Assembly (NCBI GenBank): GCA_002437665.1 | Contig: DJQW01000001.1 | Span: 392,727-456,726, forward strand | Direction: 5' to 3' | From: Alphaproteobacteria bacterium UBA6376 | Lineage (GTDB): Bacteria > Pseudomonadota > Alphaproteobacteria > Rs-D84 | Length of the DNA: 64,000 nt | Shown: in pieces, positions 1,372 to 57,631 of the stretch | Layout of the letters: each line of letters starts with the position of its first letter | Position numbering within the stretch: the stretch's first letter is position 1 | The notes under the pieces: generated by a model | Told to the model about the DNA's origin: nothing | The model's database searches: none | Seen by the model: only the letters and a program-made list of their open reading frames with translations | Made by a program: the position numbers and the translations under genes

Positions 1372-1400
1372 TTTTTGCCATAACCATCATTTACATGCTG

Positions 1401-1429
1401 ATTCTACCAGATTTTAACCCGTTTTGCAA
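1401..1429 (-). promoter_or_regulatory. Sigma70-like promoter TTGCAA-N17-TAGAAT inside the invertible segment, currently facing the Type IIG gene
   Basis: Minus-strand -35 TTGCAA (1424-1429), 17-nt spacer, -10 TAGAAT (1401-1406). An AAGGA RBS and the ATG of the methyltransferase gene follow about 90 nt downstream. Confidence 0.55.
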
Positions 1430-1452
1430 TAAAGGCATACTCTGGACATTCT

Positions 1453-1475
1453 GATGGTCCTTAGATTGCCTGTAT
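1453..1475. repeat. Right 23-bp inverted repeat; overlaps last 5 codons plus stop of the recombinase gene
   Basis: Reverse complement is identical to 1349-1371. Confidence 0.85.
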
Positions 1476-2054
1476 GTATCGTCCCAATGTTCTCGGACTA
1501 ACATTTAGTGCCATTGCCACGCGTCTTTTTGATATCCCCATTGCCAACATTTGTTTTGCTAATTTACTCTTGCCGTCCATTTTATGATGCTTGTTTTTGC
1601 TTCCCGTCTGTCGTCCAAGTTGCATGCCCGCCAGTTTTCTACGTTGCAATGCTTCTTTGGTCCTTTGCGCAATCATGTCACGTTCTATCTCTGCGGCCAT
1701 ACCGAATGCAAAGGCCAGTACCTTACTTTGAATTGATTCATTCAAGGTATACCCATCCTTTACACTGTAAACCTGCACTCCACGCTTTAATAGAAATTCT
1801 AATATGCGAAACAGCATGAACAGGCGTCGCCCGAAACGTGACAATTCAGAAATGATTACGATGTCCCCAGGGTGGATATTTTGCATCAAAATACCAAGCG
1901 CACGCTTTTCTGGTTCACGCGTGCCGGATATGCCAGAATCTTCTATATATTTATCTATCCGCAACCCAAGCGCCCCCGCCTTGGATTCAATACCCAGTTT
2001 TTGATTCGCACAATCTTGTTTATCCGTTGAAACCCGTATATAGCCATATATCAC
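1461..2054 (-). CDS. Serine recombinase (resolvase/invertase family, Hin/Gin/Tn3-resolvase-like)
   Basis: 197 aa; N-terminal YIRVSTDKQ catalytic-serine motif, resolvase core, C-terminal HTH (ISKRRVAMALNVSPRTLGRYI). Confidence 0.85.
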   Translation of the reverse strand: MIYGYIRVSTDKQDCANQKLGIESKAGALGLRIDKYIEDSGISGTREPEKRALGILMQNIHPGDIVIISELSRFGRRLFMLFRILEFLLKRGVQVYSVKDGYTLNESIQSKVLAFAFGMAAEIERDMIAQRTKEALQRRKLAGMQLGRQTGSKNKHHKMDGKSKLAKQMLAMGISKRRVAMALNVSPRTLGRYIQAI

Positions 2055-2220
2055 AATAAACTCCTTTGGTTCGTTGTTCTATATGTCGTAGATTTCAGTT
2101 TATTCAAGTAAATAAAGATGGTTTAAGAGTGTTCAGTAACAATACTTTTTTTATCCATCGGCACTTGAAAATAGTGGACTTTTTACCTAGTTAATATAAA
2201 ACATACAAGGATTTAGAAAC

Positions 2221-3684
2221 ATGAAAACAGTTTTAGATTTAAATGCAGAAAAGGCAAAAAATTTTTTTCTGGCAGGGGAAAATTATTTTACGGGGGATTT
2301 GCCTCCATATTTTAAGTTTAATGATGTTTTACAAAAGGCAACTGCGATTTTGCAAAACAATGAGTTTAAGCAAATATATCACAGAAAACCCAATGATGTT
2401 CCAGACATCAATTATGATATAATAATCAATAAAAATGGGGAATACGATTGGCGTAAATTGACGATAATAAACCCCATATTGTATGTAAACCTTGTAAATT
2501 GTATATGCAATGCCGATGCATGGGAAAAAATATGTAATAGGTTTAAAGAATTTAGATCAGACAATCGTATTGTGTGTTCAAGTATACCGGTTGTAAAAGG
2601 TATGCGTAGACATCAAAGAGCGCAACAGATTTCAAATTGGTTGACAGAATTTGAACAAGATTCTGTGAAACAATCGTTAATTTTCTCTCATATGGTATGT
2701 ACGGATATAGTAAATTGTTATTCATCTATATATACTCATTCTATAGCTTGGGCGCTACATGGAGAAGACGTAGCAAAAAACAATAAAACAGATATGTCTT
2801 TCTTAGGAAATATTATAGATGTCGGTATAAGAGACCTTTCATATAATCAAACTAATGGGATTCCACAAGGTTCGGTATTGATGGATTTTATTGCAGAAAT
2901 TATATTAGGCTATATAGATACCTTAATAGCAGAAAAATTAAAGCGAGAGAACATAAAAGATTACAAAATATTAAGATATAGAGATGATTATAGAATATTT
3001 ACAAATAATCCAAAAGACAGTGAAATAATATTAAAAACTATAAATGATGTTTGTCAGCATATAGGTCTAAGATTAAACACACAAAAAACATTCGCCACAG
3101 ATAAAGTTATTTCAAAAGCGATAAAAAAAGATCGGTTTGATATACCCATAAGTTTCGTGCAACCAAATTATAAAATATTTTTACAATTGTATAAAATGTC
3201 TGAAGAACAGCAGAATTCAGGAGCATTACAAAGTACGTTATCGGCATTAAATAAAAAAATAAAGATAACAAAAAAAGATAAATCAGAACTATTGATAAGT
3301 ATAATTACAGACATCGCATATAATGTCCCAAAAGTTATACCACAAGCATTTACAACTATTAGCCATATTTTAAGAAAAGAACCCAGAGAAATGCAGTTGG
3401 AATACATTACAAAAATCAAGAACAAGTTCTCTAGAAAAGCCTATACAAGTTTTGTTCATATATGGTTGCAAAGATTGAGTATAAATATTGATTATCAGAT
3501 TGAATACGAACCAGATATTTGCAAGTTTGTTAAAGATAAATCTATCGAATTGTGGAATTTTAGTTGGTTAAAAAAAGAATTTTTAGACCAATTAAAACCA
3601 TATGACATAGTAAATGCATATTTGCTTAGACGTGCAAAATTACCAATTGAAAGCAAAGAAACGAATATTTTTGAATACAATTAG
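2221..3684 (+). CDS. Stand-alone reverse transcriptase of the Abi/UG (defence-associated) class, with a C-terminal alpha-helical extension
   Basis: 487 aa. RT motifs: A (MVCTDIVNCYSSI), B' (NGIPQGSVLMDFIAEIIL), C (ILRYRDDYRIF, YxDD), D (IGLRLNTQKT). No endonuclease, maturase or integrase domain is evident. Confidence 0.7.
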   Translation: MKTVLDLNAEKAKNFFLAGENYFTGDLPPYFKFNDVLQKATAILQNNEFKQIYHRKPNDVPDINYDIIINKNGEYDWRKLTIINPILYVNLVNCICNADAWEKICNRFKEFRSDNRIVCSSIPVVKGMRRHQRAQQISNWLTEFEQDSVKQSLIFSHMVCTDIVNCYSSIYTHSIAWALHGEDVAKNNKTDMSFLGNIIDVGIRDLSYNQTNGIPQGSVLMDFIAEIILGYIDTLIAEKLKRENIKDYKILRYRDDYRIFTNNPKDSEIILKTINDVCQHIGLRLNTQKTFATDKVISKAIKKDRFDIPISFVQPNYKIFLQLYKMSEEQQNSGALQSTLSALNKKIKITKKDKSELLISIITDIAYNVPKVIPQAFTTISHILRKEPREMQLEYITKIKNKFSRKAYTSFVHIWLQRLSINIDYQIEYEPDICKFVKDKSIELWNFSWLKKEFLDQLKPYDIVNAYLLRRAKLPIESKETNIFEYN

Positions 3685-4138
3685 GTTTATTTTTACTCTA
3701 TTTAGGAATATTTTGTTTGGTCGCCCACGAACATTATCCCGAACCATTTGCATAAAAAGGCAAAGCGTGCCTGATATGTTGTTGCGCGAACTTGTTTTGC
3801 TTGTTTCAGCTGATAGACAGCATTTCTTTATAAATTGATTAACGACCGATGAAAATTTGGTAAGCCCAGAATGACTATGTTACTTCAATTAAGTGCTATC
3901 CGCACATCCTTCCATCAGGAACTACCCCTGTCTTAATGCCCTGAAACATTTACAGTTAACAAAAACGTCTAATGCAGAAATTGTCAAATGAGATTTACTC
4001 CCGTCAAAAATGTATCATTTTGTTGTTTCAGATACTCTTTATTAACCTTGTACTGCTCTGGAAATTGCTGAAACTCTCTTTTCATTCGCTCTACCCCTGC
4101 CGAGCAAAGATACGCCGGAGTATTGCGCCCCTTTTTGT

Positions 4139-4692
4139 TCAAAGGTGGAATAGACGGATTAAACAGAGCCTCTTGAACATTAACATTGAACAATTCTTAA
4201 CCACATCATTTGTTAGCTGGATAAAGTAAGGAATACGAACCACTTTGTAGCCAAGCTTCATATATAATTTAGTATTTTTTTCATCCCTTAAAATGATATC
4301 AGGGTTTGTGTAATGGTGTATCCCATCAAACTCAACAATTAACTTTAATGTCTCACTTCGATAATCGGGCCGCTTCATGTATTTGTTTCTGCCTACATTT
4401 CCCAATGATTTATCATGAATCCAATCTTGCACATCAGGAAATATGATAGCCAAATACTCTTCAAACCAGTTCTGTGCAACCCGGTGTCTGCATCAAAACC
4501 CGCAACCTGTTTTTCATTAAGTTTTAGATTAAAAGCATAAGACAAAACGCATTCCCCAATATCGCCAAGCATTCTGCCATCAACAGCAAAAGTTTTATGG
4601 ACTTTTTCATGCATGCCCACTGTAGTGGCATGAAGTTTCAGATACTCTCCTAATATAAAATTGGCTTGCTCTTCTGTTACCGTTAAGCTCAT
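4139..4692 (-). pseudogene. DUF559-type (PD-(D/E)xK-like) endonuclease-domain gene, apparently frameshifted
   Basis: ORF 4139-4453 carries LIVEFDGIHHY...KLGYKVVRIPY (DUF559 signature). Overlapping upstream ORF 4393-4692 is in another frame, with a stop just before the DUF559 frame resumes. A third fragment, 3984-4193, may also belong. Confidence 0.35.
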
Positions 4693-4904
4693 TTTATCAC
4701 ATCTTTTTCAAACTACTGTAACACGCCTCCCAGCATCATACAGAGAAAGAAACACCAGCACAAACAAAAACACCAAATTTGTTAAACACACTTTACAAAA
4801 GTGTTATTTTTGACAATTATGAAAAATAAAATAACATAATGGCCGAATTGACTTTCTACCCCGAAATTGCTACCATTATCCGATGATAATAATGGGGCAA
4901 AAAC

Positions 4905-7391
4905 ATGACGTTTGATAAATTACGTGATGACAACGAGGCATATGCTCGTTTAAAAATAAATCAGAAGTTGATTGACGCGGGCTGGTTTTTAACAGATGCC
5001 CATGAACATAAACGCAATGTGAATGTTGAGCAACGGGTTGATTCTGGCTTTGCTGACTATGAAATGTTAGATTCAAACGGCTTTCCTTTGTGTGTTATTG
5101 AAGCCAAAAAACCATCAATCAACCCATTAAGTGCAAAAGAACAAGCACGCAGATATGCAACAGAACACGGTATTCGCTTTGTTATTTTATCAAACGGTGA
5201 AATTTATTATCTGTGGGACATAAAAACGGGTAATCCACAAATCATAACCCAAATACCAACCCAAGAATCTTTGGAAATGCGCTTTGGTTTTGACCCAAGC
5301 ACCAAAGATATAATGAAAGAAAACATTATTCCGGAATATGTTGCATTACAAAAGAATCCGCGCTTGTTGGATGTGCCTGAATATCAAAACCCAAAGACTC
5401 GTGGCGCTTATTGTTGGAATAATGGTTTACGAATATTGCGTGATTATCAGCTTGGTGCCGTTCATGCAGTGCAGCAAGCTATTGCAGATGGTAAAGATAG
5501 ATTCTTGATTGAAATGGCGACTGGATTGGGCAAAACATTGACGGCTGGTGCAATAATTCAAATGTTATTACGCACCGGACACGCGCATAGGGTTTTATTC
5601 CTTGTTGACCGTATTGAATTGGAACAGCAAGCGTGGAAAAACTTTAATGATTATCTGTGTGATTTTGTAACCGTAATTTATAAAGAAAATACAAAAGATT
5701 GGCATAAAGCGGATATTGTTGTTTCAACCATCCAAACATTGATGGCCAGTGATAAATACAAACATTTTTCACCAACTGATTTTGATTTTATCATATCAGA
5801 CGAAGCGCACCGTTCAATAGGTGGTAACAGCCGCGCAGTATTTGAATATTTTATCGGTTACAAATTGGGATTAACTGCGACACCACGTGATTACATCAAA
5901 AATGTGGATATTGATAAAATCAAGGTTAATGACCCAAAAGCACTTGAACGCAGATTGTTATTGGATACATATAAAACATTTGGTTGTGAAAGCGGTGAAC
6001 CAACATACAAATATACAATGATTGACGGTATTAAAAATGGTTATCTGGTTGCCCCAATGGCTATTGATGCGCGCACAGATATAACCACAGAAATGTTATC
6101 CGAAAAAGGTTATCACGCGATTGGTGTTGACGATAATGGCGAGGATGCAGAAGCCGATGTTGTTGTGAAAGATTTTGAAAAACGCTTTTTCAATGACAAT
6201 ATAAACGCGGTATTTTGCAAAGCGTTCTTGGAAAACGCAGAACGCGACCCAATCAGTGGCGAAATTGGTAAAACATTGGTATTTTGCGTTAGTCAATCAC
6301 ACGCTGCAAAGATTACCCAGATGTTGAATGAATTGGCTATGCAGGCATTCCCAGGCAAATATAATAGTGATTTTGCAGTCCAGGTTACCAGCAATGTTCA
6401 AAATGCACAGCAAATGACAAATCAGTTTATGACGGATAATAATAATCTGGGCGGTAAATCAACATTTTTGGAAGGTTATGATACATCAAAAACGCGTGTA
6501 TGTGTAACCGTTGGAATGATGACGACTGGTTATGATTGCAGCGATTTATTAAACATCGTATTTATGCGTCCGGTATTTTCACCAACTGATTTTGTGCAAA
6601 TGAAGGGGCGCGGAACCCGTAAATATACATTCAAGTATGTTGACGCAGATAAGAATGAAACCAGAAAAGACAAAGAAAGATTCAAGATGTTTGACTTCTT
6701 TGGCAACTGCGAATATTTTGAAGAAAAGTTTGATTACGGTCAGCAATTAAAATTACCTGCATTAACAAAAGGCGCTTTGGCAGGGCCAGGACAACAACGC
6801 ACATTTACAACCTTAACATCCGAAGAGATAACGAAACTGATTCAAATGGAAACGCTTAATATCCCAGACAACGGAATGCGTATAGACCGCGAATTCTGGG
6901 GCAATTTCCAAAAGACAATCAGTGCTGATACAGATATTAAAAATGCGGTTGAAAACAGCGATTGGGATTATGCTGTATCATTGGTTAAAGACAGATACGA
7001 AAATAAACCTGAATTATATCCTAATCTGGAACGGATTAAAAAAGCGACAAAATTGGACCGCCGTTTGTCCTGGCGCGAAATATTGGAACATATATTCGGC
7101 TTGCTGCCCCGATTTAAGACACGCGATGAAATGTTAGAAGATGAATGCGATAAATACATATCTATTGTTAAACCTGACGCTGAAATTGTGCCGTCTGTTA
7201 AAAATTTCATAAAATTGTATGTCACAGACAACACATTTCGTGATATAATAGAAAAGCAGGAGTATCCGCGCCTTAATGCTGAAATTCCTGGCTTTAGTAT
7301 GCAGGATTTGAAAATGATGGGCAAAGACATCCGCGAAAATTTACCTGAATACATCAAAGAAAACATAGTATTGAATAAATATATGGGGTAA
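4905..7391 (+). CDS. hsdR: Type I restriction enzyme R subunit (HsdR)
   Basis: 828 aa. N-terminal nuclease motif (DSGFADY...IEAKKP), SF2 helicase motifs MATGLGKT, DEAH, LTATP, QMKGRGTR. Confidence 0.8.
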   Translation: MTFDKLRDDNEAYARLKINQKLIDAGWFLTDAHEHKRNVNVEQRVDSGFADYEMLDSNGFPLCVIEAKKPSINPLSAKEQARRYATEHGIRFVILSNGEIYYLWDIKTGNPQIITQIPTQESLEMRFGFDPSTKDIMKENIIPEYVALQKNPRLLDVPEYQNPKTRGAYCWNNGLRILRDYQLGAVHAVQQAIADGKDRFLIEMATGLGKTLTAGAIIQMLLRTGHAHRVLFLVDRIELEQQAWKNFNDYLCDFVTVIYKENTKDWHKADIVVSTIQTLMASDKYKHFSPTDFDFIISDEAHRSIGGNSRAVFEYFIGYKLGLTATPRDYIKNVDIDKIKVNDPKALERRLLLDTYKTFGCESGEPTYKYTMIDGIKNGYLVAPMAIDARTDITTEMLSEKGYHAIGVDDNGEDAEADVVVKDFEKRFFNDNINAVFCKAFLENAERDPISGEIGKTLVFCVSQSHAAKITQMLNELAMQAFPGKYNSDFAVQVTSNVQNAQQMTNQFMTDNNNLGGKSTFLEGYDTSKTRVCVTVGMMTTGYDCSDLLNIVFMRPVFSPTDFVQMKGRGTRKYTFKYVDADKNETRKDKERFKMFDFFGNCEYFEEKFDYGQQLKLPALTKGALAGPGQQRTFTTLTSEEITKLIQMETLNIPDNGMRIDREFWGNFQKTISADTDIKNAVENSDWDYAVSLVKDRYENKPELYPNLERIKKATKLDRRLSWREILEHIFGLLPRFKTRDEMLEDECDKYISIVKPDAEIVPSVKNFIKLYVTDNTFRDIIEKQEYPRLNAEIPGFSMQDLKMMGKDIRENLPEYIKENIVLNKYMG

Positions 7392-7395
7392 CGGT

Positions 7396-9288
7396 ATGTT
7401 AGACGCCAGAACAAAACAAACCATTGATAATGCCTGCGATACATTGGTGGGTAAAGTGCCAAGTCCACAGACACAGGTTGATATTATTACAACCGCGCTA
7501 ATTTATAAGTTTATGGACGATATGGATTTGGACGGCCTTGAATTGTCGGGCAAGCGTACATTTTTTGCCGGCGATTTAGAAGCATACGCGTTTTCAACCG
7601 TTGTTAATACCAAGGGTAATCAAGAACGGATGAACCTGTATTTGACAGGGCTTGAAAAGGTGCAGACCGCCAAATCGGTGCCTGAATTATTTCGCCGTAT
7701 TTTCAAAGAAGCACTTATTCCATTTCGCGATCCTACAACATTTGCATTGTTTCTAAAAGAAATCAACGAATTATCATACGATGATTCCGAGACAATAGGT
7801 GATGCTTTTGAATACCTTTTGAATAAAATGGCGACTGCAAAAAATGCGGGGCAGTTCAGAACGCCACGTAATATTATTGATTTCATCGTTGATGTTGTGA
7901 ATCCTACTAAAAATGATACTATTTTAGATCCTGCCTGCGGAACGGCCGGATTCTTGATTTCTGCATACAAGCACATTACACAAAATCGTAAATTGACACC
8001 AGATGAATTAAAACAGATTACGAATAATGTTGTTGGAATGGATATTGATCCAACTATGGTGAAATTAAGTCTGGCCAATCTGTATTTGCATAAATTTGAA
8101 CAACCAAATATTTATGAATATGATACTTTGTCGAATGATACACGTTGGGGTGACCGATATGATGTTATTTTAGCAAACCCACCATTCATGACCCCAAAGG
8201 GCGGAATTACACCGCATAAGCGATTTGCCATAAACGCCAACCGCAGTGAAGTTTTGTTCGTCGATTATTTTATGGAGCATTTGACAATAAACGGGCGTGC
8301 TGGCTTTGTTGTCCCAGAGGGTATTATATTCCAAACCGCAAACGCATATAAAGATTTGCGTAAAATGATGTTGGATGGTTATTTATACGCGGTTGTATCT
8401 TTACCATCTGGCGTATTCAATCCGTATGCTGGGGTAAAAACATCAATACTATTCTTTGACCGCGCGTTTGCAAAACAAAACAACAATATATTATTTGTGC
8501 GTGTTGATAATGACGGCTTTTCTTTGGGCGCACAACGCACACCGATCAAACAGAACGATTTACCAGAAACGTTAAAGATTATCAATGAATACCGCGATGG
8601 TAAAGATGTATCAGGTTATGAACGCGCAATGGTTGTGTCCAAAGAACGCATAGCAGAACAAAATTATGACCTAACCGCTGCAAAGTATGTTGAGAAAGAA
8701 ATTGTTCAATGTAATTATGGAATGGTTAGATTGGGTGATGTTTGTGAATTGTTAAATGGATATGCATTCAAAAGCGAATTGTATACGGATACTGGTATTC
8801 GTGTGATGCGTATAACAAATGTGCAGAAAGGCGAAATTGTTGATGATAACCCAAAATTTTATCCGATAGAAAAACAATCCGAAATACAAAATTACATGTT
8901 ACATGAAAATGACTTGCTTGTATCTTTAACGGGTAATGTTGGGCGTGTTGGTTTGTTGCCAAAGAATTTATTACCTGCAGGATTAAATCAACGGGTTGCA
9001 TGTTTAAGACCGGATACAGATAAAATTTTGAAGGGATATTTGTTTGCTATATTAAATCAGGATAAATTTGAAAAAGATTGTATTGAATCGTCTGGCGGAA
9101 TTGCGCAAAAGAATTTAAGCACAGTATGGTTACAAAATTACACAATCCCACTTCCGTCATTGGATGTGCAACAACAGATTGTGGATGAAATTGAAAATAA
9201 GCAATCAGCAATCAACCACGCACGCAAAATCATTGAAAATCTAGAGAGAGAGAGAGAGAATATTTTGCCTGCCTTCTTGACAGTATAG
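7396..9288 (+). CDS. hsdM: Type I methyltransferase HsdM fused in frame to an HsdS half (target-recognition domain 1 + conserved coiled-coil)
   Basis: 630 aa. N6-MTase motifs (DPACGTAGFL, NPPF). Typical HsdM C-terminus (SKERIAEQNYDLTAAKYV) runs directly into an HsdS-like TRD (VRLGDVCELLNGYAFKS...). Ends just after an (AG)8 tract. Confidence 0.8.
   Translation: MLDARTKQTIDNACDTLVGKVPSPQTQVDIITTALIYKFMDDMDLDGLELSGKRTFFAGDLEAYAFSTVVNTKGNQERMNLYLTGLEKVQTAKSVPELFRRIFKEALIPFRDPTTFALFLKEINELSYDDSETIGDAFEYLLNKMATAKNAGQFRTPRNIIDFIVDVVNPTKNDTILDPACGTAGFLISAYKHITQNRKLTPDELKQITNNVVGMDIDPTMVKLSLANLYLHKFEQPNIYEYDTLSNDTRWGDRYDVILANPPFMTPKGGITPHKRFAINANRSEVLFVDYFMEHLTINGRAGFVVPEGIIFQTANAYKDLRKMMLDGYLYAVVSLPSGVFNPYAGVKTSILFFDRAFAKQNNNILFVRVDNDGFSLGAQRTPIKQNDLPETLKIINEYRDGKDVSGYERAMVVSKERIAEQNYDLTAAKYVEKEIVQCNYGMVRLGDVCELLNGYAFKSELYTDTGIRVMRITNVQKGEIVDDNPKFYPIEKQSEIQNYMLHENDLLVSLTGNVGRVGLLPKNLLPAGLNQRVACLRPDTDKILKGYLFAILNQDKFEKDCIESSGGIAQKNLSTVWLQNYTIPLPSLDVQQQIVDEIENKQSAINHARKIIENLERERENILPAFLTV
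9243..9259. repeat. (AG)8 dinucleotide simple-sequence repeat at the hsdM-S/hsdS' junction
   Basis: agagagagagagagaga read directly. It lies about 30 nt before the stop of the HsdM-S ORF (ends 9288). The downstream half-S frame is open through the tract. Confidence 0.8.
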
Positions 9289-9305
9289 ATTACAACGAAG
9301 TAAAA

Positions 9306-9800
9306 TTGGGCGATGTTGTAAAGGTTGATTGGGGAAATACCAATTTAACAAAAGCCGCATATGAAGAAAATGGCAAATATCTTGGTGTCAGTGCTGCAGG
9401 TTGTGACGGGCGTATGTCAAATTTTGAACACGATGTGGGAGTTAGTGTTTTATCTGCGATAGGTGCAAACTGTGGAAGGGTTTTTTATCCGGATGAAAAA
9501 TTTACGGCGATTAAAAATACTATAACTTTCACACCGAATAGAACAGTTGTTGTGCCAAAATATTTATTTTTTGTTATGCGGAACAATCAATTACCACAGC
9601 GTGGCGGAGCACAACCATTTATGGCGAAAGCGGATGTTGAATCATATATTATACCACTTCCATCCATTGACGACCAGAAGCGTATAGTTGCAAAATTGGA
9701 AGCAGAACAGGAAATCATTGATACAAATAAACGCTTGATTGATTTGATGCAAGAAAAAATCAACCAAGTTATAAAACGTATATATAGGTGCAATATGTAA
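9306..9800 (+). CDS. hsdS: HsdS half-subunit (target-recognition domain 2 + second conserved coiled-coil)
   Basis: 164 aa, TTG start. TRD followed by LPSIDDQKRIVAKLEAEQEIID...; its frame is open upstream through the (AG)8 tract. Confidence 0.65.
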   Translation: MGDVVKVDWGNTNLTKAAYEENGKYLGVSAAGCDGRMSNFEHDVGVSVLSAIGANCGRVFYPDEKFTAIKNTITFTPNRTVVVPKYLFFVMRNNQLPQRGGAQPFMAKADVESYIIPLPSIDDQKRIVAKLEAEQEIIDTNKRLIDLMQEKINQVIKRIYRCNM

Positions 9801-9802
9801 TT

Positions 9803-10492
9803 ATGACTGAATATTCTGATGATAATCCAGTTTATGTATTAGCGGATTTTTTGCCGCCACTTGATGAAACTGTTGCTTATCTATATAAATACAAAGATGA
9901 TTTTGCATATCATTATGAACGAGAATTTTATAATCTTGCGTTATTCTCGTATCACCAATTGTATATGGCAATATTGCATATGTATTTGTTAAAGTTCCAC
10001 AGGATGGATATAAAAATCGCTAGTGCCTGCAGGCAGAATCGTCCAATTATAAGTGTTTTATCTCCTTCTTTTTATTCTGATGTTATGGATGAAAAAGCTC
10101 GCATTGGGTTGTTTGGTCGTAGAATTTCAACCGAAATTAAAAAGAAACATGTAGAATTAGTTCAACAAAGGGATAGAATTGCGCATTTTACTGGGAATGT
10201 GTTAACCAAAGAACAAATTGACGAACATATATCAATATCGGCGGTTGTGTTAAAAGAAATTCAATCTGTTGCTTTTTATGAATTACTTTTGCATCCAACA
10301 GACCGTTTCGGGGTTCAAGTAAACGATATAGTGACAGAAATAGACAAGTCGGAAAGGTTTTCAAAAATTTCATATCTGATTCAGGACTTCTATTTATCTA
10401 AAAATGATATAGATTTTTTACAGAGATATCCTGATTTTTGTTTTTGGAATGAATATATACAGGAAAATGGTTATGAGCCAATTGAAAATTAA
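9803..10492 (+). CDS. Hypothetical protein with HEPN-like Rx4H motif (Abi-like candidate)
   Basis: About 229 aa, directly after hsdS'; RDRIAHF motif; no other recognisable domain. Confidence 0.35.
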   Translation: MTEYSDDNPVYVLADFLPPLDETVAYLYKYKDDFAYHYEREFYNLALFSYHQLYMAILHMYLLKFHRMDIKIASACRQNRPIISVLSPSFYSDVMDEKARIGLFGRRISTEIKKKHVELVQQRDRIAHFTGNVLTKEQIDEHISISAVVLKEIQSVAFYELLLHPTDRFGVQVNDIVTEIDKSERFSKISYLIQDFYLSKNDIDFLQRYPDFCFWNEYIQENGYEPIEN

Positions 10493-21056: not shown

Positions 21057-21280
21057 TATCTAGTGGTTATTTTGTTTATTTGATACCAATATATAGTTTT
21101 ATAGGTTTTCTATCAATACGTAAAACAGAAATTTTTTTTCATTTTTTACTTTACTTTTCAAAAGGCGGGTTTTCCGTACGTTTGCGCCGCAGCCGATTCC
21201 TCGAATCGGAATACTAAATATGTTTTTGTGTCAATAATTTGACCAAAACGCGCCCAAAAACGATTCGTAAAATGCAAAAA

Positions 21281-21299
21281 ACACAAAATATAGGGGTGT
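21281..21299. promoter_or_regulatory. NrdR-box-like palindrome upstream of nrdD
   Basis: acacaaaatataggggtgt resembles the acaCwAtATaTwGtgt consensus; about 225 bp upstream of the nrdD start. Confidence 0.25.
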
Positions 21300-21469
21300 T
21301 TTTGTAAAACTATGTCTATATGTTGACAAAATGATGTGTTTTTCAGTGCAAAATAGACCAAAATGTTAAAATAGGTTGTGTTTCCCATCCAAAAATGATT
21401 TAGTGTAAGTATGTCTGGGTAATGGTTATCCAGATTTTTACTTAAAACTAACAAAAGAGCATAATCATT

Positions 21470-33342: not shown

Positions 33343-35574
33343 ATGAGCAAGGAAATAATCGAAAATATTGAATCACAACAACTGTCTGATGCGCTGTCCC
33401 AGCGGTATTTGTCATACGCGGTCAGCACGATTGTATCGCGCGCGCTGCCTGATGTCCGCGACGGGTTAAAGCCCGTACATCGTCGCATCTTGTATTCCAT
33501 GTTGCGCCAGAAATTGTCGCCATCGGCGGCGTTTCGTAAATGCGCGACGGTGGTCGGCGACGTGCTGGGTCACTATCATCCCCATGGGGACAGTTCGGTC
33601 TATGACGCAATGGTGCGCTTGGCCCAGGATTTCTCGGTACGCTATCCATTGATTGATGGTCAGGGTAACTTTGGTAATATCGATGGTGACCCCCAGGCGG
33701 CGTATCGTTATACCGAATCCAAAATGACCGATGCCGCCATGCTGATTATGGAGGGGATTGACGAAGACAGCGTTGACATGATGCCGAATTTTGACGGCAC
33801 AACGTCTGAACCCGTGGTTATGCCGGGGGCGTTCCCAAATTTGCTGGCCAACGGCGGTATGGGTATCGCGGTGGGTATGGCGACAAACATTCCAACCCAT
33901 AATGTGGCAGAGGTTTGCGATGCCTTGAATCTGGTAATTGATAAACCGGACGCCACCACCGCCCAGATTATGAAGAAACTGGTCGGGCCTGATTTCCCAA
34001 CGGGCGGCGTTTTGATTGACAGTTTTGACACAATCGTTAAAAACTATGAAACGGGTCGTGGCGCATTCCGCATTCGTGCGAAATGGGAAATTGAAAAACT
34101 GGATCGCGGTGCAGAGCAGGTGGTTATCACCGAAATCCCATATGGTCTGCTGAAATCCAAATTGGTGGAACAAATCGCCGGCCTGATTGACGCACGCAAA
34201 TTGCCATTGGTTGACGATATTGTCGATGAATCCACAACCGATGTTCGTATTGTTATCACACCAAAGAGCCGTAATGTCCCATTGGACAAAATGATGGCGC
34301 ACCTGTTTGCAATGACCGATTTGGAATATCGGTTCAATATGAACTTTAACGTCATCGATACCAATGGTGCACCGCGCGTGATGGGTATTGGATCGGTTCT
34401 GCGTGAATTTATCGCGCACCAGAAAAACGTTTTGGTACGTCGCACGAATTGGCGTTTGGGTAACATTACGCGTCGCTTGGAAATCTTGGGCGGTTTGCTG
34501 ATTGTGTACCTGAATTTGGATCGTGTGATTGAAATCATCAGAACCGAAGATGACGCAAAATCCGTCTTGATGTCGGAATTTAAGTTGAGCGAGGTTCAGG
34601 TAGAGGCGATTCTGAACACCCGCCTGCGCAGTTTGCGTAAACTGGAAGAAATGGAAATCCGCCGCGAAGATGCCGAATTGTTGGCGGAACAAAAGAATTT
34701 GCAGGAATTGCTGGCATCTGACCAAATGCAGAATGACCAGTTAAAGGCGTGGTTCACCGATATTAAAAAGCGTTATGATAAAAAGACCGCATTGGGTCGC
34801 CGCCGCACCACATGGGCGGAACAGACCGAAGAAATTGTGGTCAACGCCGACGAATTTATTGAAAAAGAACCATTGACCATAATCTTGTCCACGATGGGAT
34901 GGATTCGCGCGGCCAAGGGCACGTTGGATTTGAACAATTTGGATTTGAAATTCAAAGAGGGCGACGAACTGCAATTCGCATTCCATGCGATGTCGACCGA
35001 CAAAATCAACCTGTTCACATCGGCGGGCAAAATGTTCACATTGGCGGCAAACGAATTGCCGTCGGCGCGTGGGTTTGGTGAATCTGTACGTTTGATGGCG
35101 GACATCGCCGCGGATGAAACAATCGTGCGCGCGTTTGTCTTGGATGCGTCGGCAAAGTACCTGTTGGTGGCGCGCCATGGCACGGGATTCATCGTGTCGG
35201 GCGAAAATTGCTTGGCTCAGACCAAGAACGGCAAACAGGTTATGAACACAGACGCCACAAATCAGGCGATTATGTGTGTGCCGGTCACGGGTGACACGAT
35301 TGCAATGTCGGGGTCAAACGACAAACTGTTGATATTCCCGACCAGTGAAATTCCCGAAATGACCCGTGGCAAGGGTGTGATATTGCAAAAATACAACGCC
35401 GACCGTACGTATGTTTTGGACGTTATGTTCTTTAACGCGGCGGACGGTTTCGGTTGGACAACGGGGCGTGGCACGACCAAGTTGGACGATTGGACGCCGT
35501 GGACGGGGCGGCGTGCATCCCAGGGGCGCACCGTACCATTGGGATTCCCCCGCACCGGCAAATTCACAAAATAA
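33343..35574 (+). CDS. parC: DNA topoisomerase IV subunit A (ParC) / GyrA-family
   Basis: 743 aa; active-site region AAMRYTE-like ([11 protein letters not shown]), no long GyrA C-terminal box; size fits ParC. Confidence 0.8.
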
Positions 35575-35639
35575 AAACCGCCCCAAATGGGGTGGTTTTA
35601 TTTTTACCTTGCTTTTATTTTATCAAAAATTTACACTTG

Positions 35640-35873
35640 ATATGAACCCACGGGGACGTGTGGGTTCGGGACTTAGAAAATCCCATAAGAAAGCGGTGCA
35701 TTGCACCGAATGTCCGACGTATGAAAATGGTCGGCGCATATTGCGCCTGTTATTTTCTGTATCCCGACATATTTGGTCGGGAAGCGGTGGTTATATATCG
35801 AAAGCCATCGGGTCATTCTTTCTTATGATTTTTCTAACTTCCCGACCACCATACTCTGGTGGTTTTTGTTTGG
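35640..35873 (+). promoter_or_regulatory. Structured leader element copy C, ending in a terminator 18 nt before the Cys-rich gene 35891
   Basis: Stem1 TCCCGAC(35762-68)/GTCGGGA(35776-82). GTCGGGAAG(35776-84) can pair with CTTCCCGAC(35838-46). Terminator GACCACC(35844-50)/GGTGGTT(35858-64)+TTTTGTTTGG. Further 5' hairpins GAACCCACGGGG..GTGGGTTC and GGTGCATTGCACC. Confidence 0.55.
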
Positions 35874-35890
35874 TTGCACAGCAATAGGGG

Positions 35891-36337
35891 GTGTTAGTGA
35901 TAAATAATAAAATTTGTTTTTATATAATTTCTGCATTTGTGTTATGCGGGGGGCAATCCGCCGATGCGGCTGCCTGGTTGAACGGGTGCACAGAATCCAA
36001 GTATTGCATATGTGGAAATAGGATGGTCGGGGCAACTCAGAATAAATATTGCTGCCCAGAAACGAAAACATCAACAACGATAACATGTCCATCTGGTTGG
36101 ACGAAAGAAACATATTCTGGCATACAAATTCCAGAAGCACCCACTAAATACGTCTGTACCCGCGCTGACGAAACAACATACAACGCGTTATCGCATTCGT
36201 ATGTAAAAACGACGTATTCCACATGTTGGGCGGAATCCACCACCACGACCGAAACACGCTATTGCCCAACGACAACGGATTCGTGTGGTTTGAAACTTGA
36301 CTGTAAACTGGGTGACAGCCCAATCTTGGATTTATAG
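35891..36337 (+). CDS. Secreted Cys/Thr-rich protein (family member 2)
   Basis: 148 aa, GTG start, signal peptide, 14 Cys, T-rich. Confidence 0.5.
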   Translation: MLVINNKICFYIISAFVLCGGQSADAAAWLNGCTESKYCICGNRMVGATQNKYCCPETKTSTTITCPSGWTKETYSGIQIPEAPTKYVCTRADETTYNALSHSYVKTTYSTCWAESTTTTETRYCPTTTDSCGLKLDCKLGDSPILDL

Positions 36338-45625: not shown

Positions 45626-46363
45626 TTATTGCGCTGATTCTGAACTTTCTGTGGGGTTCATTTTGGCGTACTCGCGGCGGATTACGTCCATTATGCCCGA
45701 TGCGCGCATATGGCTGGAAAATGCGGTACAGTTGTTAAATTCTGTTTCCAGTGTGCCCCAGCCGGCGTATTCCCAATCAATCAGTCCCGCCACACGCATC
45801 GTGCGCGTGTCAACAATGATATTATTGCAGATGTCGTTGTGATTCCACCCGTCGCCCGCGCCACGTTGCAGGTCGCGAATTTCCGCCGGTCGCGCGTGAT
45901 GTACGGCGGTAATAAATTCCGCCAGTTGCCGTCCCCACAGTTCGCGATTGCGCGCAATGGTGCGTGTTGGCAACTTGTTCATATTGTGCCCGCGAATAAA
46001 GTTGTATTTATAGAACACATATTGGCCCGCATGTACGATTTCGATTTTTGGAATTGCCAATGGCGATATGTGTTCAAACGCATCCGTAATCCGCTTTTCC
46101 CGCATGATGCGTTCGGCGGGCACACTGGTGTCCAAGAATTTACGTGTTTTGAATACGTATTTGTTGTCGACGATAAAACCGATGTTCCATCCGCCCTTTA
46201 TCATTTTTACATGGGTAAAGCGCAGTTCGGGTTGTGCGGCACGCAGTGCACGATATTTGTCGCGCCAATCGAACAGGCGTTTATGGCGAATGCGGTGACG
46301 CACATTGCGATCAGGTATAAAACAGACCAAAATATCACAGATTTCAAAGAACAATTTCCACAT
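45626..46363 (-). CDS. Kinase of the APH/LPS-kinase (Kdo/WaaP/choline-kinase) fold
   Basis: 245 aa; GWNHNDICNNIIVD (HxD catalytic loop) and IDWEYAGWG (DxD-like) motifs. Confidence 0.55.
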   Translation of the reverse strand: MWKLFFEICDILVCFIPDRNVRHRIRHKRLFDWRDKYRALRAAQPELRFTHVKMIKGGWNIGFIVDNKYVFKTRKFLDTSVPAERIMREKRITDAFEHISPLAIPKIEIVHAGQYVFYKYNFIRGHNMNKLPTRTIARNRELWGRQLAEFITAVHHARPAEIRDLQRGAGDGWNHNDICNNIIVDTRTMRVAGLIDWEYAGWGTLETEFNNCTAFSSHMRASGIMDVIRREYAKMNPTESSESAQ

Positions 46364-46426
46364 GTGCGCACCCTTGTTAAATTTGTGAATAATGGTATTG
46401 AAAAAAACGAAAAAAACAAGTACTTT

Positions 46427-48646
46427 ATGGGCATGTTCAAAGCGGGCGATATTGTAAAAGTTTTGATACCAAATGTTGCGAATGCCGGATACGACTATCG
46501 TTTAACGGTGGCGGCTGACATTGGTCAATTTGTTGCGTGTCGCGTCATGAACCGCCCATACGTTGGTGTGGTTTGGGGCATTGGGGATTCGGGGCTGCCC
46601 GCGGAAAAAATCAAAGACATTATTACGGTCTATGATGCGCGTCTGGCGGTTACTGATTTGCAATGGATTGCCAAGATGTCAACGTGGACACTGATGTCAT
46701 TGGGGGCGGTATTGCGATTGATTGTAAATGTGCCCGACGCATTTTTACCGCCCAAGATGGAACAACTCTATGAATTAAATATTGCAGACGGTGTGCGTAT
46801 GACCGCACCGCGTCTGGCGGTTGCCGATGCATTTGCGTCAAACGATGGCGACCCAATGTCGGCATCTGATGTCCAGAATATCGCACACGTCAGTGCCGCC
46901 GTCGTCCGCACAATGATAGGGCAGGGTTTGCTTGTTCCCAGAGAGCAAAGAGCATCCGTCTCCGCTGCGCTCCGCCGCGATATAATATATCACGATTGTG
47001 GTAATATAAAATTAAATGCCGAACAGCAATCGGCGGCGGACAAAATTGGTGCGGCGATTGACGCGGGTGGTTTTTCGGTGCACCTGTTGGACGGTATCAC
47101 GGGCAGTGGTAAAACACAGGTTTATTTTGATGCCGCATGGCGTGCGTATTCGCGCGGTGCGTCAGTATTATTGATGATGCCAGAAATCGCATTGACGGCG
47201 CAGTTTATGCATCGTTTTGCTGCGCGATTTGGTGCCGCCCCCGTCGTGTGGCACAGTAATTTAACCGCCGCGCGTCGTCGTGAAATCTGGCGCGGGGTAT
47301 TAAACGGCGAAATTCGTATGGTCGTCGGCACGCGCAGTGCATTGTTCTTGCCGTGGCAAAAATTGGGTCTGATTGTCGTGGACGAAGAACACGATACATC
47401 ATATAAACAGGAAGATATGGGGAATTATCACGCCCGCGACATGGCGGTCTTGCGTGCCAAGATTGCGGGATTTCCCGTTGTACTGGCCAGTGCGACGCCA
47501 TCGGCGGAAACCCTGCAAAATGTTGCGCTGGGGAAATACCAGTTATTGCGCCTGACATCGCGATTTGGTGGCGCGCAAATGCCAAAAATTGAAACAATCG
47601 ATTTGCGTGAAAATCGCCCCGACACGTACCAGTTGCCATCGGATGATGCAGATTCCGCGCCACGAACGGGCTATCTGTCCACGCCATTGTGCGATGCGAT
47701 TTCAGAAACACTGGCGGCGGGCCGTCAAATAATGCTGTTTATAAATCGCCGCGGTTTTGCCCCGATTGTTCAGTGTAAAAAATGCGGCTGGGTTGCCCAG
47801 TGTCCGGATTGCAGCGTCGGCATGACGTATCACCGCGCGATGGGCAAATTGCTGTGCCATATGTGTGGGCGCACCGCGCCAATGCTGGCCAAATGTCCCG
47901 ATTGCGGCGGCGATGTGTCGACGCGTGGTGCGGGCTTGGAAAAGATAGCAGAGGAGGTGTCCGCCCGTTTTCCATCGGCGCGGGTCGTATTGGTGTCCAG
48001 TGATACAATTTCATCGCGCCAGTCATTGGAACGCTTGGTCGCAAAAATGGAAAACGGCGAAATCGACATCGTCATCGGAACGCAGATTCTGGCCAAGGGT
48101 CACCATTTTCCGAACCTGACACTGGTTGGGGTTGTGGACGCCGATATGGGGTTGTTCGGTACGGATTTCCGTGCCGCCGAACATACGTTTCAGCAATTAT
48201 TTCAGGTTGCCGGTCGTGCCGGTCGTGGCGAATTCCCAGGGCGGGTATTGATGCAAACGTACCAGCCCGACCACCCAGTTTTGCGTGCGATATGTGCGGG
48301 CGATCGTGATGCGTTTATGGCGTCCGACATGGCGGCGCGCCGTGCGGCGGGAATGCCACCGTTTGGTCAACTGATTGCGGTTGTTGTAGAGGGACAAAAG
48401 GAATCCGTATTAAAGGGGTTCTGTGATGCATTGGCGGCGGCCGCGCCGATTGCCGCGGGCGTAAAAATCATGGGCCCAATCGCGGCGGGCGTGTATCAAA
48501 TCAGAAATTGGTATCGTATGCGTTTCTTGGTTGCGGGCGATACAACAACAATGTTGCAACCGGTTGTATCGCATTGGCTGGCCAAGGTAAAACAACCCGC
48601 CAACATTCGGGTCAAGGTTGATGTAAACCCACAAAACTTTATGTGA
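46427..48646 (+). CDS. priA: Primosomal protein N' (replication restart helicase PriA)
   Basis: Walker A GITGSGKT, DEEH, Cys-rich Zn-binding insert (CKKCGW...CPDCS...CHMCG...CPDCG). ATG 46427 chosen; the 45710 extension in the track overlaps the divergent kinase gene. Confidence 0.85.
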   Translation: MGMFKAGDIVKVLIPNVANAGYDYRLTVAADIGQFVACRVMNRPYVGVVWGIGDSGLPAEKIKDIITVYDARLAVTDLQWIAKMSTWTLMSLGAVLRLIVNVPDAFLPPKMEQLYELNIADGVRMTAPRLAVADAFASNDGDPMSASDVQNIAHVSAAVVRTMIGQGLLVPREQRASVSAALRRDIIYHDCGNIKLNAEQQSAADKIGAAIDAGGFSVHLLDGITGSGKTQVYFDAAWRAYSRGASVLLMMPEIALTAQFMHRFAARFGAAPVVWHSNLTAARRREIWRGVLNGEIRMVVGTRSALFLPWQKLGLIVVDEEHDTSYKQEDMGNYHARDMAVLRAKIAGFPVVLASATPSAETLQNVALGKYQLLRLTSRFGGAQMPKIETIDLRENRPDTYQLPSDDADSAPRTGYLSTPLCDAISETLAAGRQIMLFINRRGFAPIVQCKKCGWVAQCPDCSVGMTYHRAMGKLLCHMCGRTAPMLAKCPDCGGDVSTRGAGLEKIAEEVSARFPSARVVLVSSDTISSRQSLERLVAKMENGEIDIVIGTQILAKGHHFPNLTLVGVVDADMGLFGTDFRAAEHTFQQLFQVAGRAGRGEFPGRVLMQTYQPDHPVLRAICAGDRDAFMASDMAARRAAGMPPFGQLIAVVVEGQKESVLKGFCDALAAAAPIAAGVKIMGPIAAGVYQIRNWYRMRFLVAGDTTTMLQPVVSHWLAKVKQPANIRVKVDVNPQNFM

Positions 48647-48739
48647 TTTTTTAATTTTTCACTGGATTTAATTCGTATATTTGTTTAGCATACCTGTTGA
48701 CACGGGGTGTTCCTGTGTCGGGGATTCAAGACCCCATGA

Positions 48740-48880
48740 AACCAGCGTCCACGTGACGATAAAAACTCCAACGCCTATTGCGGGTTGGAGGGCTGCGAAT
48801 ACATTGAATAAGCACGCTATAACTGGTTTTATAGTCTTGAACCTCCAACCACCTGAATTTCTTGGTGGTTTTCTTTTGTT
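48740..48880 (+). promoter_or_regulatory. Structured leader element copy A, ending in a terminator 30 nt before the Cys-rich gene 48911
   Basis: GCGTCCACGTGACGATAAAAACTCCAAC... Stem1 CTCCAAC(48766-72)/GTTGGAG. GGTTGGAGG(48783-91) can pair with CCTCCAACC(48842-50). Terminator AACCACC(48847-53)/GGTGGTT(48864-70)+TTCTTTTGTT. Confidence 0.55.
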
Positions 48881-48910: not shown

Positions 48911-49729
48911 ATGAAACCAATAAAAATAATTTGCGCACTTGCATTTGCGTGGGGAATTTTGTCCGTGCCCGCATACGCCGCATCAACATGCACGGCAACA
49001 CTGATTGGTTCTACGACCAGTTCGACAACATCAATCGAAAACTGTATCAATGGTGAAAAGTACCGCTGGAAAAACAGCAGTGGCACATATGTAACGGTTG
49101 AAACGTGCTTGGATTGCTCGGACGGTGCGACATTGACCGAAGATGTTTCTTATTCACATTGCACAAATAAATTCACACGCGGTTTTTGCAGAAAAAAATG
49201 CACTGTTCAAACCATAGATGAAACCGATTTTCCAGAAGGTTGCACGGGTATGGCCGCGTACACCAAGAGTTTTGGTAATACAGAGTATGTTGAATGTACG
49301 GACTGTGAAAACGGGTATAAAGGGGTTCGAAAAACCGTTTCGTCCAACTGGTGTACAAATACCACTACCCAATTTCTGTGCGAGGTTGACCCCGACGCCG
49401 AATGCACAACCGATGACGAGTGTGTTGGGAATTTTGTCACCGAACCCGATGCAAATGGCTATGTAGAGGTTTCTACATTTGGTTGGTGCAGTGGCGGACA
49501 ATGCGAGTACGAAGACAGCAAACCCACTTGTATCAAGGGGTATTATGGTGCGGAAGGCAGTACCACTTGCCACAAATGCCCAACCGAGACCGGTGGTATT
49601 CCAACAACAACCGCAAATGAATACGGTGCAACATCAATTACGGAATGTTATGCCGAAAAAGATAACAAGGGTAAAGATACTGCCGGCACGTACAGTTTTT
49701 CACAAAATTGTAACTATTCTAATAACTAA
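48911..49729 (+). CDS. Secreted Cys/Thr-rich protein (family member 4; C..GYY...C..CP motif)
   Basis: 272 aa; signal peptide (AYAAST), about 30 Cys, CIKGYYGAEGSTTCHKCPTETGG. Confidence 0.55.
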   Translation: MKPIKIICALAFAWGILSVPAYAASTCTATLIGSTTSSTTSIENCINGEKYRWKNSSGTYVTVETCLDCSDGATLTEDVSYSHCTNKFTRGFCRKKCTVQTIDETDFPEGCTGMAAYTKSFGNTEYVECTDCENGYKGVRKTVSSNWCTNTTTQFLCEVDPDAECTTDDECVGNFVTEPDANGYVEVSTFGWCSGGQCEYEDSKPTCIKGYYGAEGSTTCHKCPTETGGIPTTTANEYGATSITECYAEKDNKGKDTAGTYSFSQNCNYSNN

Positions 49730-56842: not shown

Positions 56843-57190
56843 TCAGTTATTATTCATCAATTCGCGCTTTAACATACGTACATTCTGCGTCATATCGTCA
56901 ATCAGGCGTTGCACGCGGTTATAGTCCAACACGCGGCATGGCGCATTTGGAAAATCATTTTCAAAGAATGGTACAACCGACACCCCCAGCGCGTTTGCAA
57001 TTTGGCACATGCGCCACACAGACACGCGATTTGTCCCAGATTCGTACTTTTGAATTTGTTGTGGCGTGATACCGGTGCGTCGCCCCAGTTCTTGTTGTGA
57101 TACGCCCATAAATTCACGTGCACGCCGCAGAAATTCGCCCGCGCAGCGGTTAAATTCTTGTTCGGCGAACGTCTTTGCAATTCCAACCAT
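56843..57190 (-). CDS. XRE-family HTH transcriptional regulator
   Basis: About 115 aa from ATG 57188-57190 (AAGGA RBS); VSQQELGRRTGITPQQIQKYESG HTH. Confidence 0.7.
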   Translation of the reverse strand: MVGIAKTFAEQEFNRCAGEFLRRAREFMGVSQQELGRRTGITPQQIQKYESGTNRVSVWRMCQIANALGVSVVPFFENDFPNAPCRVLDYNRVQRLIDDMTQNVRMLKRELMNNN

Positions 57191-57220
57191 CGGTATTCCT
57201 TTTGTGCGTTTATACAACAA

Positions 57221-57410
57221 AAAACCACCAGAAATTTTTCAGGTGGTTGGAGGTTAAGAACTACTCTACCGATATAGTGTGATTTATTTATGTATATCAT
57301 CACCCTCCAACCCGTGGTTGGAGTTTTACGTCATCACGGACGCGGTAGTCGGAGTTCTTACACCCCGCAACAGCAACACGCCATTGCACGGACATTATAT
57401 GGTTTTTGTG
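57221..57410 (-). promoter_or_regulatory. Structured leader element copy B with promoter and terminator, directly upstream of the XRE regulator gene
   Basis: Minus strand: TTGTAT-N17-TATAAT (about 57410-57380). GCGTCCGTGATGACGTAAAACTCCAACC acg GGTTGGAGGG ... AACCTCCAACCACC tgaaaaatttct GGTGGTT TTTTGTTG, then RBS and ATG. Confidence 0.55.
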
Positions 57411-57631
57411 CTGCAAATACAATAAAAAAACGCCGCCGGTGTTGCCCAGCGGTGTTTCCGAATGCCCTGAAAGGAAGGAAAGGAGAAAAAGAAATGGGCA
57501 TTCTAAACTGTTAAAAGGGTTGGGGCCCAGAGTCCAGAGGAGAGAGAATGTAGGAGGGAGTCTGAATCCCTGAACCCCGCGTCGCTGGGGTTGCCCCCTT
57601 TGACGAATCGAAATGTAATACAATTTTTGTT

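Follow-up and report, generated by a model that had tools for sequence, protein, structure and literature searches.

A multi-copy leader RNA family of gut Alphaproteobacteria with two competing folds, a candidate transcription-termination switch

Three segments of the window (the whole 64-kb stretch of DNA analysed here) are copies of one RNA family, and more than 130 further members were recovered beyond them, all in gut or rumen Alphaproteobacteria. The leader RNAs are ~170-270 nt long and fall into three structural subtypes: type 1, which resembles copies A and B; type 2, which resembles copy C; and type 3, which is larger (210-275 nt). Two sets of helices occur in all three subtypes. In fold I, the long-range helices S1 and S2 close a multi-helix junction, X1 pairs with X' to form a hairpin (H2), and the terminator is present. 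In fold II, strands of S1 and S2 are taken up by two local hairpins, P2 and H4, and the partner of X' is X2. We propose that the element probably is a cis-acting transcription-termination switch, a riboswitch-like leader in which the terminator fold would be the default. We judge it to be a new family, absent from Rfam, that would operate by a known mechanism; the novelty lies in the family itself, in its dual-sequestering architecture and in its candidate regulon of secreted proteins and XRE regulators, and the mechanistic kind is already known.

All three copies were confirmed in the window, at the following positions:

35640-35871, + strand: copy C, whole element
48697-48877, + strand: copy A, whole element (covariance model 130 bits, MFE fold)
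57389-57219, - strand: copy B, whole element (covariance model 143 bits, MFE fold)

The motif ACCACC-loop-GGTGGTTTT has three exact occurrences in the 64-kb window, one per copy, and none in 100 shuffles. Each copy folds far more stably than its dinucleotide shuffles, with MFEs of -96.6 kcal/mol (z = -7.1) for C, -72.3 kcal/mol (z = -5.3) for A and -66.5 kcal/mol (z = -5.4) for B. Scanning the window with a covariance model built from relatives returned only B (143 bits), A (130 bits) and C (27 bits, E = 3e-6); a 13.6-bit match at 21274-21394 is AT-rich, lacks the features of the element and is not a fourth copy. The first-pass annotation had described three segments sharing one architecture, and the same layout is indeed seen in the MFE folds of C, A and B, from 5' to 3': P1, S1, S2, a junction with H1, H2 and H3, and the terminator. 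Its anatomy was sound for the X/X' hairpin and the terminator; it missed the strongest helices, the long-range S1 and S2, and also P2 and H4. Copy A does not start at 48740, as had been given, but near 48697, and the CACGGGG...GTGT module cited for it sits at 48700-48718. This module, taken at first for conserved sequence, is actually the hairpin P1, whose stem covaries freely, and the region described as a spacer is structured.

The window is chromosomal, with parC (33343-35574) upstream of copy C and priA (45710-48646) upstream of copy A, both assigned by Pfam; parC carries its own terminator ahead of copy C. The priA ORF measures 978 aa from its first ATG. Other assemblies annotate this gene with 739-760 aa, so the start used here is probably over-extended and the N-terminus too long. 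Proteins of the window occur with identical sequence in the MAG GCA_002452175.1, in further assemblies and in metagenome contigs. Positions 1-10000 have a G+C content of 0.30-0.41, compared with 0.41-0.51 in the remaining window, and may be an acquired island.

Copy C comprises the following parts, given from 5' to 3' together with its promoter and the ORF behind it:

35609-35637, + strand: promoter with -35 TTGCTT, 17 nt spacer and -10 TACACT (sequence; family-wide -10 box)
35644-35667, + strand: P1, the 5' hairpin (MFE fold; compensatory changes in the type-2 consensus; 5/5 P1 pairs covary in type 1)
35668-35680, + strand: S1 5' strand GGGACUUAGAAAA (MFE fold; S1 covaries in types 1 and 3), which in fold II is the 5' arm and loop of the local hairpin P2
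35681-35684, + strand: P2 3' strand UCCC, pairing with GGGA in fold II only (read from sequence)
35684-35693, + strand: S2 5' strand CAUAAGAAAG (MFE fold; S2 complementarity kept among type-2 relatives)
35694-35708, + strand: H1 hairpin (MFE fold)
35712-35759, + strand: extra type-2 hairpins (MFE fold)
35762-35768, + strand: X1 (UCCCGAC), the 5' arm of H2 (sequence, MFE fold)
35775-35784, + strand: X' GGUCGGGAAG, pairing with X1 in fold I (7 bp) and with X2 in fold II (10 bp)
35785-35810, + strand: H3 hairpin, in both folds (MFE fold, type-2 consensus)
35812-35829, + strand: H4, alternative local hairpin GUCAU/AUGAU, whose loop is the S2 3' strand (35818-35827)
35830-35843, + strand: S1 3' strand UUUUCUAACUUCCC (MFE fold, type-2 consensus)
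35838-35847, + strand: X2 CUUCCCGACC, common to the outer S1 pairs, the X':X2 antiterminator and the terminator base
35844-35871, + strand: intrinsic terminator GACCACCA-loop-UGGUGGUU with U-run (motif, fold, terminator scan)
35891-36337, + strand: downstream ORF, Cys-rich with a signal peptide (GTG start at 35891 or 35897; SD GGGGG at 35887-35891)

The internal-hairpin region (35694-35759) is variable among type-2 members. The corresponding parts of copies A and B are:

48700-48718, + strand: copy A P1
48720-48732 and 48834-48846, + strand: copy A S1 5' strand and S1 3' strand
48736-48745, + strand: copy A S2 5' strand
48746-48758, + strand: copy A H1
48766-48772, + strand: copy A X1
48783-48791, + strand: copy A X'
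48792-48817, + strand: copy A H3
48817-48834, + strand: copy A H4
48842-48850, + strand: copy A X2
48847-48877, + strand: copy A terminator
48911-49729, + strand: ORF downstream of copy A, 272 aa, signal peptide, 22 Cys
57394-57399, - strand: copy B -10 box TATAAT
57367-57387, - strand: copy B P1
57354-57366 and 57249-57261, - strand: copy B S1 5' strand and S1 3' strand
57343-57348 and 57266-57271, - strand: copy B S2 5' strand and S2 3' strand
57329-57342, - strand: copy B H1
57316-57323, - strand: copy B X1
57304-57312, - strand: copy B X'
57277-57303, - strand: copy B H3
57245-57253, - strand: copy B X2
57219-57248, - strand: copy B terminator
56843-57190, - strand: ORF downstream of copy B, a 115-aa XRE-type HTH regulator (Pfam HTH_3, E = 2e-12)

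The S1 helix of copy A is formed by GGGGAUUCAAGAC/GUCUUGAACCUCC and its counterpart in copy C by GGGACUUAGAAAA/UUUUCUAACUUCCC. The complementarity of X1, X' and X2 is legible directly in the sequence, and so is the compensated change to which the first-pass annotation had drawn attention: CCAAC/GTTGG in A and B, CCGAC/GTCGG in C. A terminator scanner detected the intrinsic terminators of C and B, and the motif search shows one in all three copies; they end ~20-35 nt upstream of start codons. The description of the genes behind the three copies as two Cys-rich secreted proteins and an XRE regulator agrees with their signal peptides, Cys content and HTH_3 match, the ORFs behind copies C and A giving no Pfam match.

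Relatives were collected by two pattern scans. The scan of a genome collection used the terminator motif and gave at least 119 loci, with ~35 clear homologues among the matches listed; its pattern contained ACCACC/GGTGGT, so the apparent invariance of that stem in this set is an artefact of the pattern. The MAGs carrying homologues are almost all labelled as Alphaproteobacteria-type organisms ('Azospirillum sp. 51_20', 'Acetobacter sp. 46_36', Candidatus Enterousia, Ca. Scatocola, 'Rickettsiales' UMGS1180). The pattern for the metagenome scan held only X1, X' and X2 and was blind to P1, S1, S2, H3 and the terminator; roughly 100 real type-1 elements were present among the matches listed. Two loci, L154 (1290-1630) and L232 (760-1700), were excluded as chance pattern matches, being 29-30-nt palindromic tandem repeat arrays, CCCACGCTCCAACCC(A)TTGGGTTGGAGCGT. 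A phage origin was also rejected, the single pattern match on a viral contig (L251) being no element by the covariance model. The type-1 covariance-model alignment contains 107 members.

This alignment bears out the proposal of a conserved structured RNA family. For fold I, 93.6% of its cells are paired and 30 of the 40 pairs are changed on both sides, and the covariation score is 0.529, compared with 0.152 for shuffled controls and at most 0.093 for slid registers. The inner S1 pairs and all S2, P1 and H3 pairs covary via many pair types. G-U pairs are plentiful, with columns 40:305 being GU in 97 of the 107 sequences, and the transcribed strand is therefore fixed. RNAalifold independently recovered the same architecture from four type-2 members including C, whose 9-10 bp S2 helices have entirely different sequences that are all still complementary. 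The same architecture was obtained from twelve type-3 members, in which 29 of 57 pairs are compensatory and S1 covaries. Long-range pairs 250 nt apart covary. The only conserved unpaired positions in type 1 are the P1 loop (GNGUU) and the H3 loop GAAUAUAUUGAAUAA (GAAUA...AAUAA).

Every member has a terminator. It is a G+C-rich hairpin followed immediately by a U-run, the hallmark of an intrinsic (Rho-independent) terminator, and 96.7% of its stem cells are paired across the 107 sequences. Its ACCACC/GGTGGT stem had been presented as shared by all copies, and it is not invariant in the family: in members picked without reference to the terminator the upper stem covaries, occurring as ACC/GGU, GCC/GGC, ACU/AGU, GCU/AGC and GCA/UGC.

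The helices of fold II covary as well. In the type-1 alignment, 93.5% of fold II cells are paired and the score is 0.438, compared with 0.150 for shuffles. In P2, the GGG(G) of S1 is bound to a CCC further 3', which turns the S1 5' strand into the loop; column 39 covaries with column 55 in this hairpin (GC 67, GU 23, AU 16) rather than with column 306, its partner in S1, and the change from G to A at column 39 breaks the S1 pair 39:306 in 17 sequences. H4 (CAAUU/AAUUG or CUAU/AUAG), which holds the S2 3' strand in its loop and exists only in fold II, covaries at columns 273:292 (AU 62, UA 30 in type 1). The type-1 retrieval pattern fixed X1, X' and X2, and the direct covariation of X':X2 consists of one column pair together with the CCAAC/CCGAC co-change between subtypes. 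That column pair, 199:303, joins the extensions of X' and X2 just beside the X repeat (GC 82, UA 16, UG 5, AU 1 in type 1), and it supports the alternative pairing of X' with the terminator arm that had been put forward from the sequence. The fold-I neighbour of column 303 is column 43, and the two are almost never complementary. Among the type-3 elements, 12 of 12 sequences can form the X':X2 helix of 10 bp, and P2 is pairable in 97.9% and H4 in 94.8% of cells, fold II being nearly invariant in this subtype. X':X2 is 9-10 bp in every subtype and so longer than X1:X' at 6-8 bp.

X2 is common to the outer S1 pairs, to X':X2 and to the bottom four terminator pairs. Only one of the two folds can consequently form at a time, and in fold II the terminator base is lost. 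In the mechanistic class to which the element probably belongs, exclusive structures share one terminator strand; this was found here, and both folds covary, so the idea of a mutually exclusive terminator and antiterminator gains support from outside the X repeat. The two folds are far from equal in computed stability. When X':X2 was forced, the best structures were 18.2 (A), 13.6 (B) and 10.9 (C) kcal/mol less stable than the MFE, and the core of the terminator fold was computed to be favoured even before the terminator 3' arm is made. With fold I favoured by 11-18 kcal/mol, the default is probably OFF (termination), and switching away from so dominant a fold needs a factor or kinetic control.

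The element lies in 5' leaders, as had been suggested. A promoter stands at a fixed distance upstream of P1, with a -35 TTG (T 0.81, T 0.64, G 0.42), an extended -10 TG and TATAAT; a TAnnnT hexamer falls exactly at -10 in 67 of 106 members. The fixed distance of this sigma-70 promoter places the transcription start at the base of P1. At the other end, a same-strand, SD-preceded ORF follows within 150 nt in 104 of 126 elements, and 88 of the 101 distinct downstream ORFs start no more than 45 nt after the element (median 25 nt). An N-terminus resembling a signal peptide is found in 56 of these 101 ORFs and a Cys content of at least 4% in 34. Few are recognised by Pfam: HTH/XRE (6), Listeria-Bacteroides repeat (4), Ephrin_rec_like Cys-rich repeats (3), and single cases of an autotransporter, Chlam_PMP, an OMP beta-barrel, DegT, a glycosyltransferase and an EcoRI-type methylase. 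The leaders encode no conserved leader peptide, there being no ATG column common to a majority of the 107 members; the commonest, column 35 (49 of 107), is without an SD and opens ORFs ranging from 7 to 30 codons. A leader-peptide attenuator of the trp, his or leu type was ruled out on the ground that the leader holds no conserved short ORF.

We infer regulation by the element, the assignment of a fold to the ON state, switching in vivo and a factor that shifts the balance from these structural models, which suggest the following sequence of events. The sigma-70 promoter would start the transcript at the base of P1. In fold I, S1 and S2 would close around the junction with H1, H2 (X1:X') and H3, leaving the 3' half of X2 free, so that the terminator could form and polymerase would stop 17-40 nt before the start codon (OFF). 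In fold II, the local hairpin P2 would lock up the 5' strand of S1 and H4 the 3' strand of S2, and X' would leave X1 for a 9-10 bp helix with X2; the terminator would lose its bottom 4 bp and polymerase would read on into the gene (ON). Given the far greater stability of fold I, the trigger most likely acts by favouring fold II or by blocking S1/S2. A trigger acting in this way would be an antitermination signal for genes that mainly encode secreted or surface proteins and small XRE regulators.

The fixed-distance promoter and the strong intrinsic terminator of each copy would also suit stand-alone, trans-acting sibling sRNAs, for which the ~170-270-nt terminated transcript is the product, for instance as a base-pairing regulator or protein sponge, and the downstream gene is expressed by incidental read-through. 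The high stability and thermodynamic dominance of the terminated fold also speak for such transcripts, and either the conserved H3 loop GAAUAUAUUGAAUAA or the P1 loop GNGUU might serve as a binding site. Some copies, moreover, are orphans or stand in tandem, with their own -10 box and no ORF behind. We nevertheless find this unlikely. A free-standing sRNA gene would not keep the tight arrangement in which 88 of 101 same-strand ORFs, with an SD, begin within 45 nt and leave no space for a second promoter, and sRNA function leaves the covariation of helices that do not belong to the terminated fold (P2, H4, 199:303) unexplained. One role does not exclude the other, and there are known cases of riboswitch transcripts that act in trans after termination; the tandem and orphan copies and the polymorphism at the B locus suggest that the terminated RNA, too, may be functional in itself.

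Processive-antitermination leaders, in which read-through of terminators inside or behind the leader controls surface, polysaccharide and secreted-factor genes, are known from RfaH/ops-JUMPstart, the LoaP leader hairpin, EAR and HK022 put. The element could, by analogy, be a recognition site for an antitermination protein or RNA polymerase modifier (NusG-paralogue/LoaP-like or put/EAR-like), its alternative fold being a folding intermediate. The regulons of RfaH, LoaP and UpxY-type proteins consist of surface and secreted-type genes like those behind the element, which include surface, secreted, autotransporter, OMP, pilin-like, glycosyltransferase and DegT genes. The terminator inside the leader and the conserved hairpin loops would fit such a site, and subtypes this diverse could not share one small-ligand pocket. 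However, most targets here are single short genes and not long operons, and the terminator, which is part of the element, is removed by a competing helix. That this antiterminator helix itself covaries favours structural switching, and we give protein recognition of this kind only a small chance of being the right account.

Rfam offers one possible relative, the family sRNA-Xcc1 (RF02221), which sits upstream of symE in Xanthomonas integron cassettes and also upstream of an ORF6N gene in APSE phages. Copy C scores 29.4 bits against it (E = 0.004), and the alignment covers the closing stem X':X2, the H3 and H4 hairpins and the ACC tail, that is, the three-way junction of fold II. Like our element, sRNA-Xcc1 has a three-way junction closed by a G-rich/C-rich stem and followed by ACC and a U-run, lies just upstream of a gene and resembles the X'/X2 sequence of copy C; it differs in host clade and in downstream genes. 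The score is well under the gathering threshold of 53 bits, A and B gave no match to the family, and eight other type-2/type-3 members gave none at E <= 1. As the match is sub-threshold, confined to copy C and absent from these 10 other members, we do not claim membership, and a diverged sRNA-Xcc1 is in our opinion very unlikely.

A DNA-level repeat (MITE/REP-like or a mobile promoter cassette) whose palindromes only resemble RNA structure would account for a multi-copy element (3 in 64 kb) that stands ahead of unrelated genes, varies within a species at one locus, where it is also partly duplicated, and forms tandem copies, but is hardly credible for a sequence in which pairing is kept via many base-pair types and one-strand-only G-U pairs, pairs 250 nt apart covary, and promoter, terminator and SD follow in a fixed, oriented order; the sequences read show no terminal inverted repeats or target duplications, and spread of copies by recombination, though probable, leaves the structure unexplained.

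Comparison with known families agrees with the first reading of the element as unlike any known riboswitch or T-box. At Rfam 15 gathering thresholds the window gives only 4 tRNAs, and 17 homologous loci give nothing at the element; in E-value mode, A, B, C and 8 relatives have no consistent match. Across both modes, the matches other than that of copy C to sRNA-Xcc1 were to tRNA, 5S and unrelated families. Reading the 'ACCACCA' 3' arm as tRNA-like or as part of a T-box was rejected, ARAGORN and Rfam lending it no support. We found no prior description of the element in the literature on RF32, Enterousia and rumen riboswitch candidates.

In design, the proposed termination switch resembles the riboswitch and attenuator platforms (T-box, PyrR, trp-type). 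It is a promoter-bearing 5' leader with an intrinsic terminator immediately before the ORF, one segment (here X2) is common to the terminator and a competing upstream helix, and there are sequestering hairpins. Unlike these platforms, it has no Rfam aptamer or T-box match and no conserved leader peptide, its 'sensor' is a large multi-helix junction that differs between the three subtypes, and its regulon consists of secreted or surface proteins and XRE regulators rather than metabolic genes. The ligand pocket of a classic metabolite riboswitch is invariant, whereas H1 and H3 differ greatly between subtypes here. Riboswitches of the c-di-GMP-I/II and cGAMP types occur in many copies per genome before adhesin, pilin and secreted-protein genes, often acting via terminators. 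The element likewise is multi-copy and stands ahead of surface and secreted-protein genes, but it has no sequence or structure similarity to them (Rfam negative).

A more far-reaching interpretation, which we regard as possible but rather doubtful, sees in the family a novel class of riboswitch, or else the RNA partner in a novel antitermination system, that serves as a global surface-proteome switch in gut Alphaproteobacteria. If so, much of the secreted and surface proteome and several XRE regulators would be gated copy by copy by a signal new to RNA sensors, in some cases in hosts with reduced genomes (Rs-D84/'Candidatus Enterousia'-like lineages). The genomes of 'Candidatus Enterousia', order Rs-D84, are below 1 Mb and have few conventional regulators (PMC12306168). 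The host bacteria of the element are gut and rumen Alphaproteobacteria known only from metagenomes. Should the switch be real, one RNA device would control many secreted, Cys-rich, autotransporter-like and pilin-like proteins as well as small regulators, and the identity of the trigger could reveal what these organisms sense in the gut. The element would then be a well-supported orphan riboswitch or attenuator candidate with covariation that is unusually clear for both states, which makes it directly testable in vitro without culture of the host.

Several loci suggest that copies of the element spread and recombine. Within one species, two alleles of the B leader with 77% identity stand before an identical XRE ORF (57219-57389 compared with L007, L010, L011 and L012). 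The alleles differ by compensatory changes in S1, S2, H1 and H3, and the contig L012 has an extra, 5'-truncated tandem copy. This allele pair suggests recombination between paralogous leaders, and such a swap within a species suggests that leaders are exchanged between genes. In another species, a type-1 element (L026, 6870-7051) precedes an orthologue of the B-locus XRE gene and has a slightly different terminator, AACCCACC...GGTGG; in other species a type-3 element stands ahead of a similar XRE gene (L025, L059). The occurrence of type-1 or type-3 leaders before XRE genes across species indicates that the pairing of leader and XRE gene is old and the leader subtype exchangeable. Full elements also occur as tandem pairs 55-70 nt apart (L196, 408-801; L140, 6312-6739; L212, 1648-2059). 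In the two pairs read, L196 and L212, each copy has its own -10 box, and both copies of L212 are orphans, with promoter and terminator and no same-strand ORF behind. Tandem copies and the allelic variation of the B leader sit awkwardly with the picture of a plain 5' leader.

Two further features were observed near members of the family. Just upstream of copy B lies a transcription unit on the - strand with a promoter at 57640-57612 (TTGACA, 17 nt, TACATT) and a terminator at 57452-57433. Its RNA (57425-57606, 182 nt, z = -4.5) has two hairpins with long CU-rich, anti-Shine-Dalgarno-like loops and no Rfam match and is probably a trans-acting sRNA. A second repeated hairpin (TTCCCCT...AGGGG...) is found 3' of the terminator at the metagenome loci L135, L144, L146, L189, L216 and L241; in L135 and L216 it separates terminator and ORF, so that the start codon comes to lie ~100 nt away.
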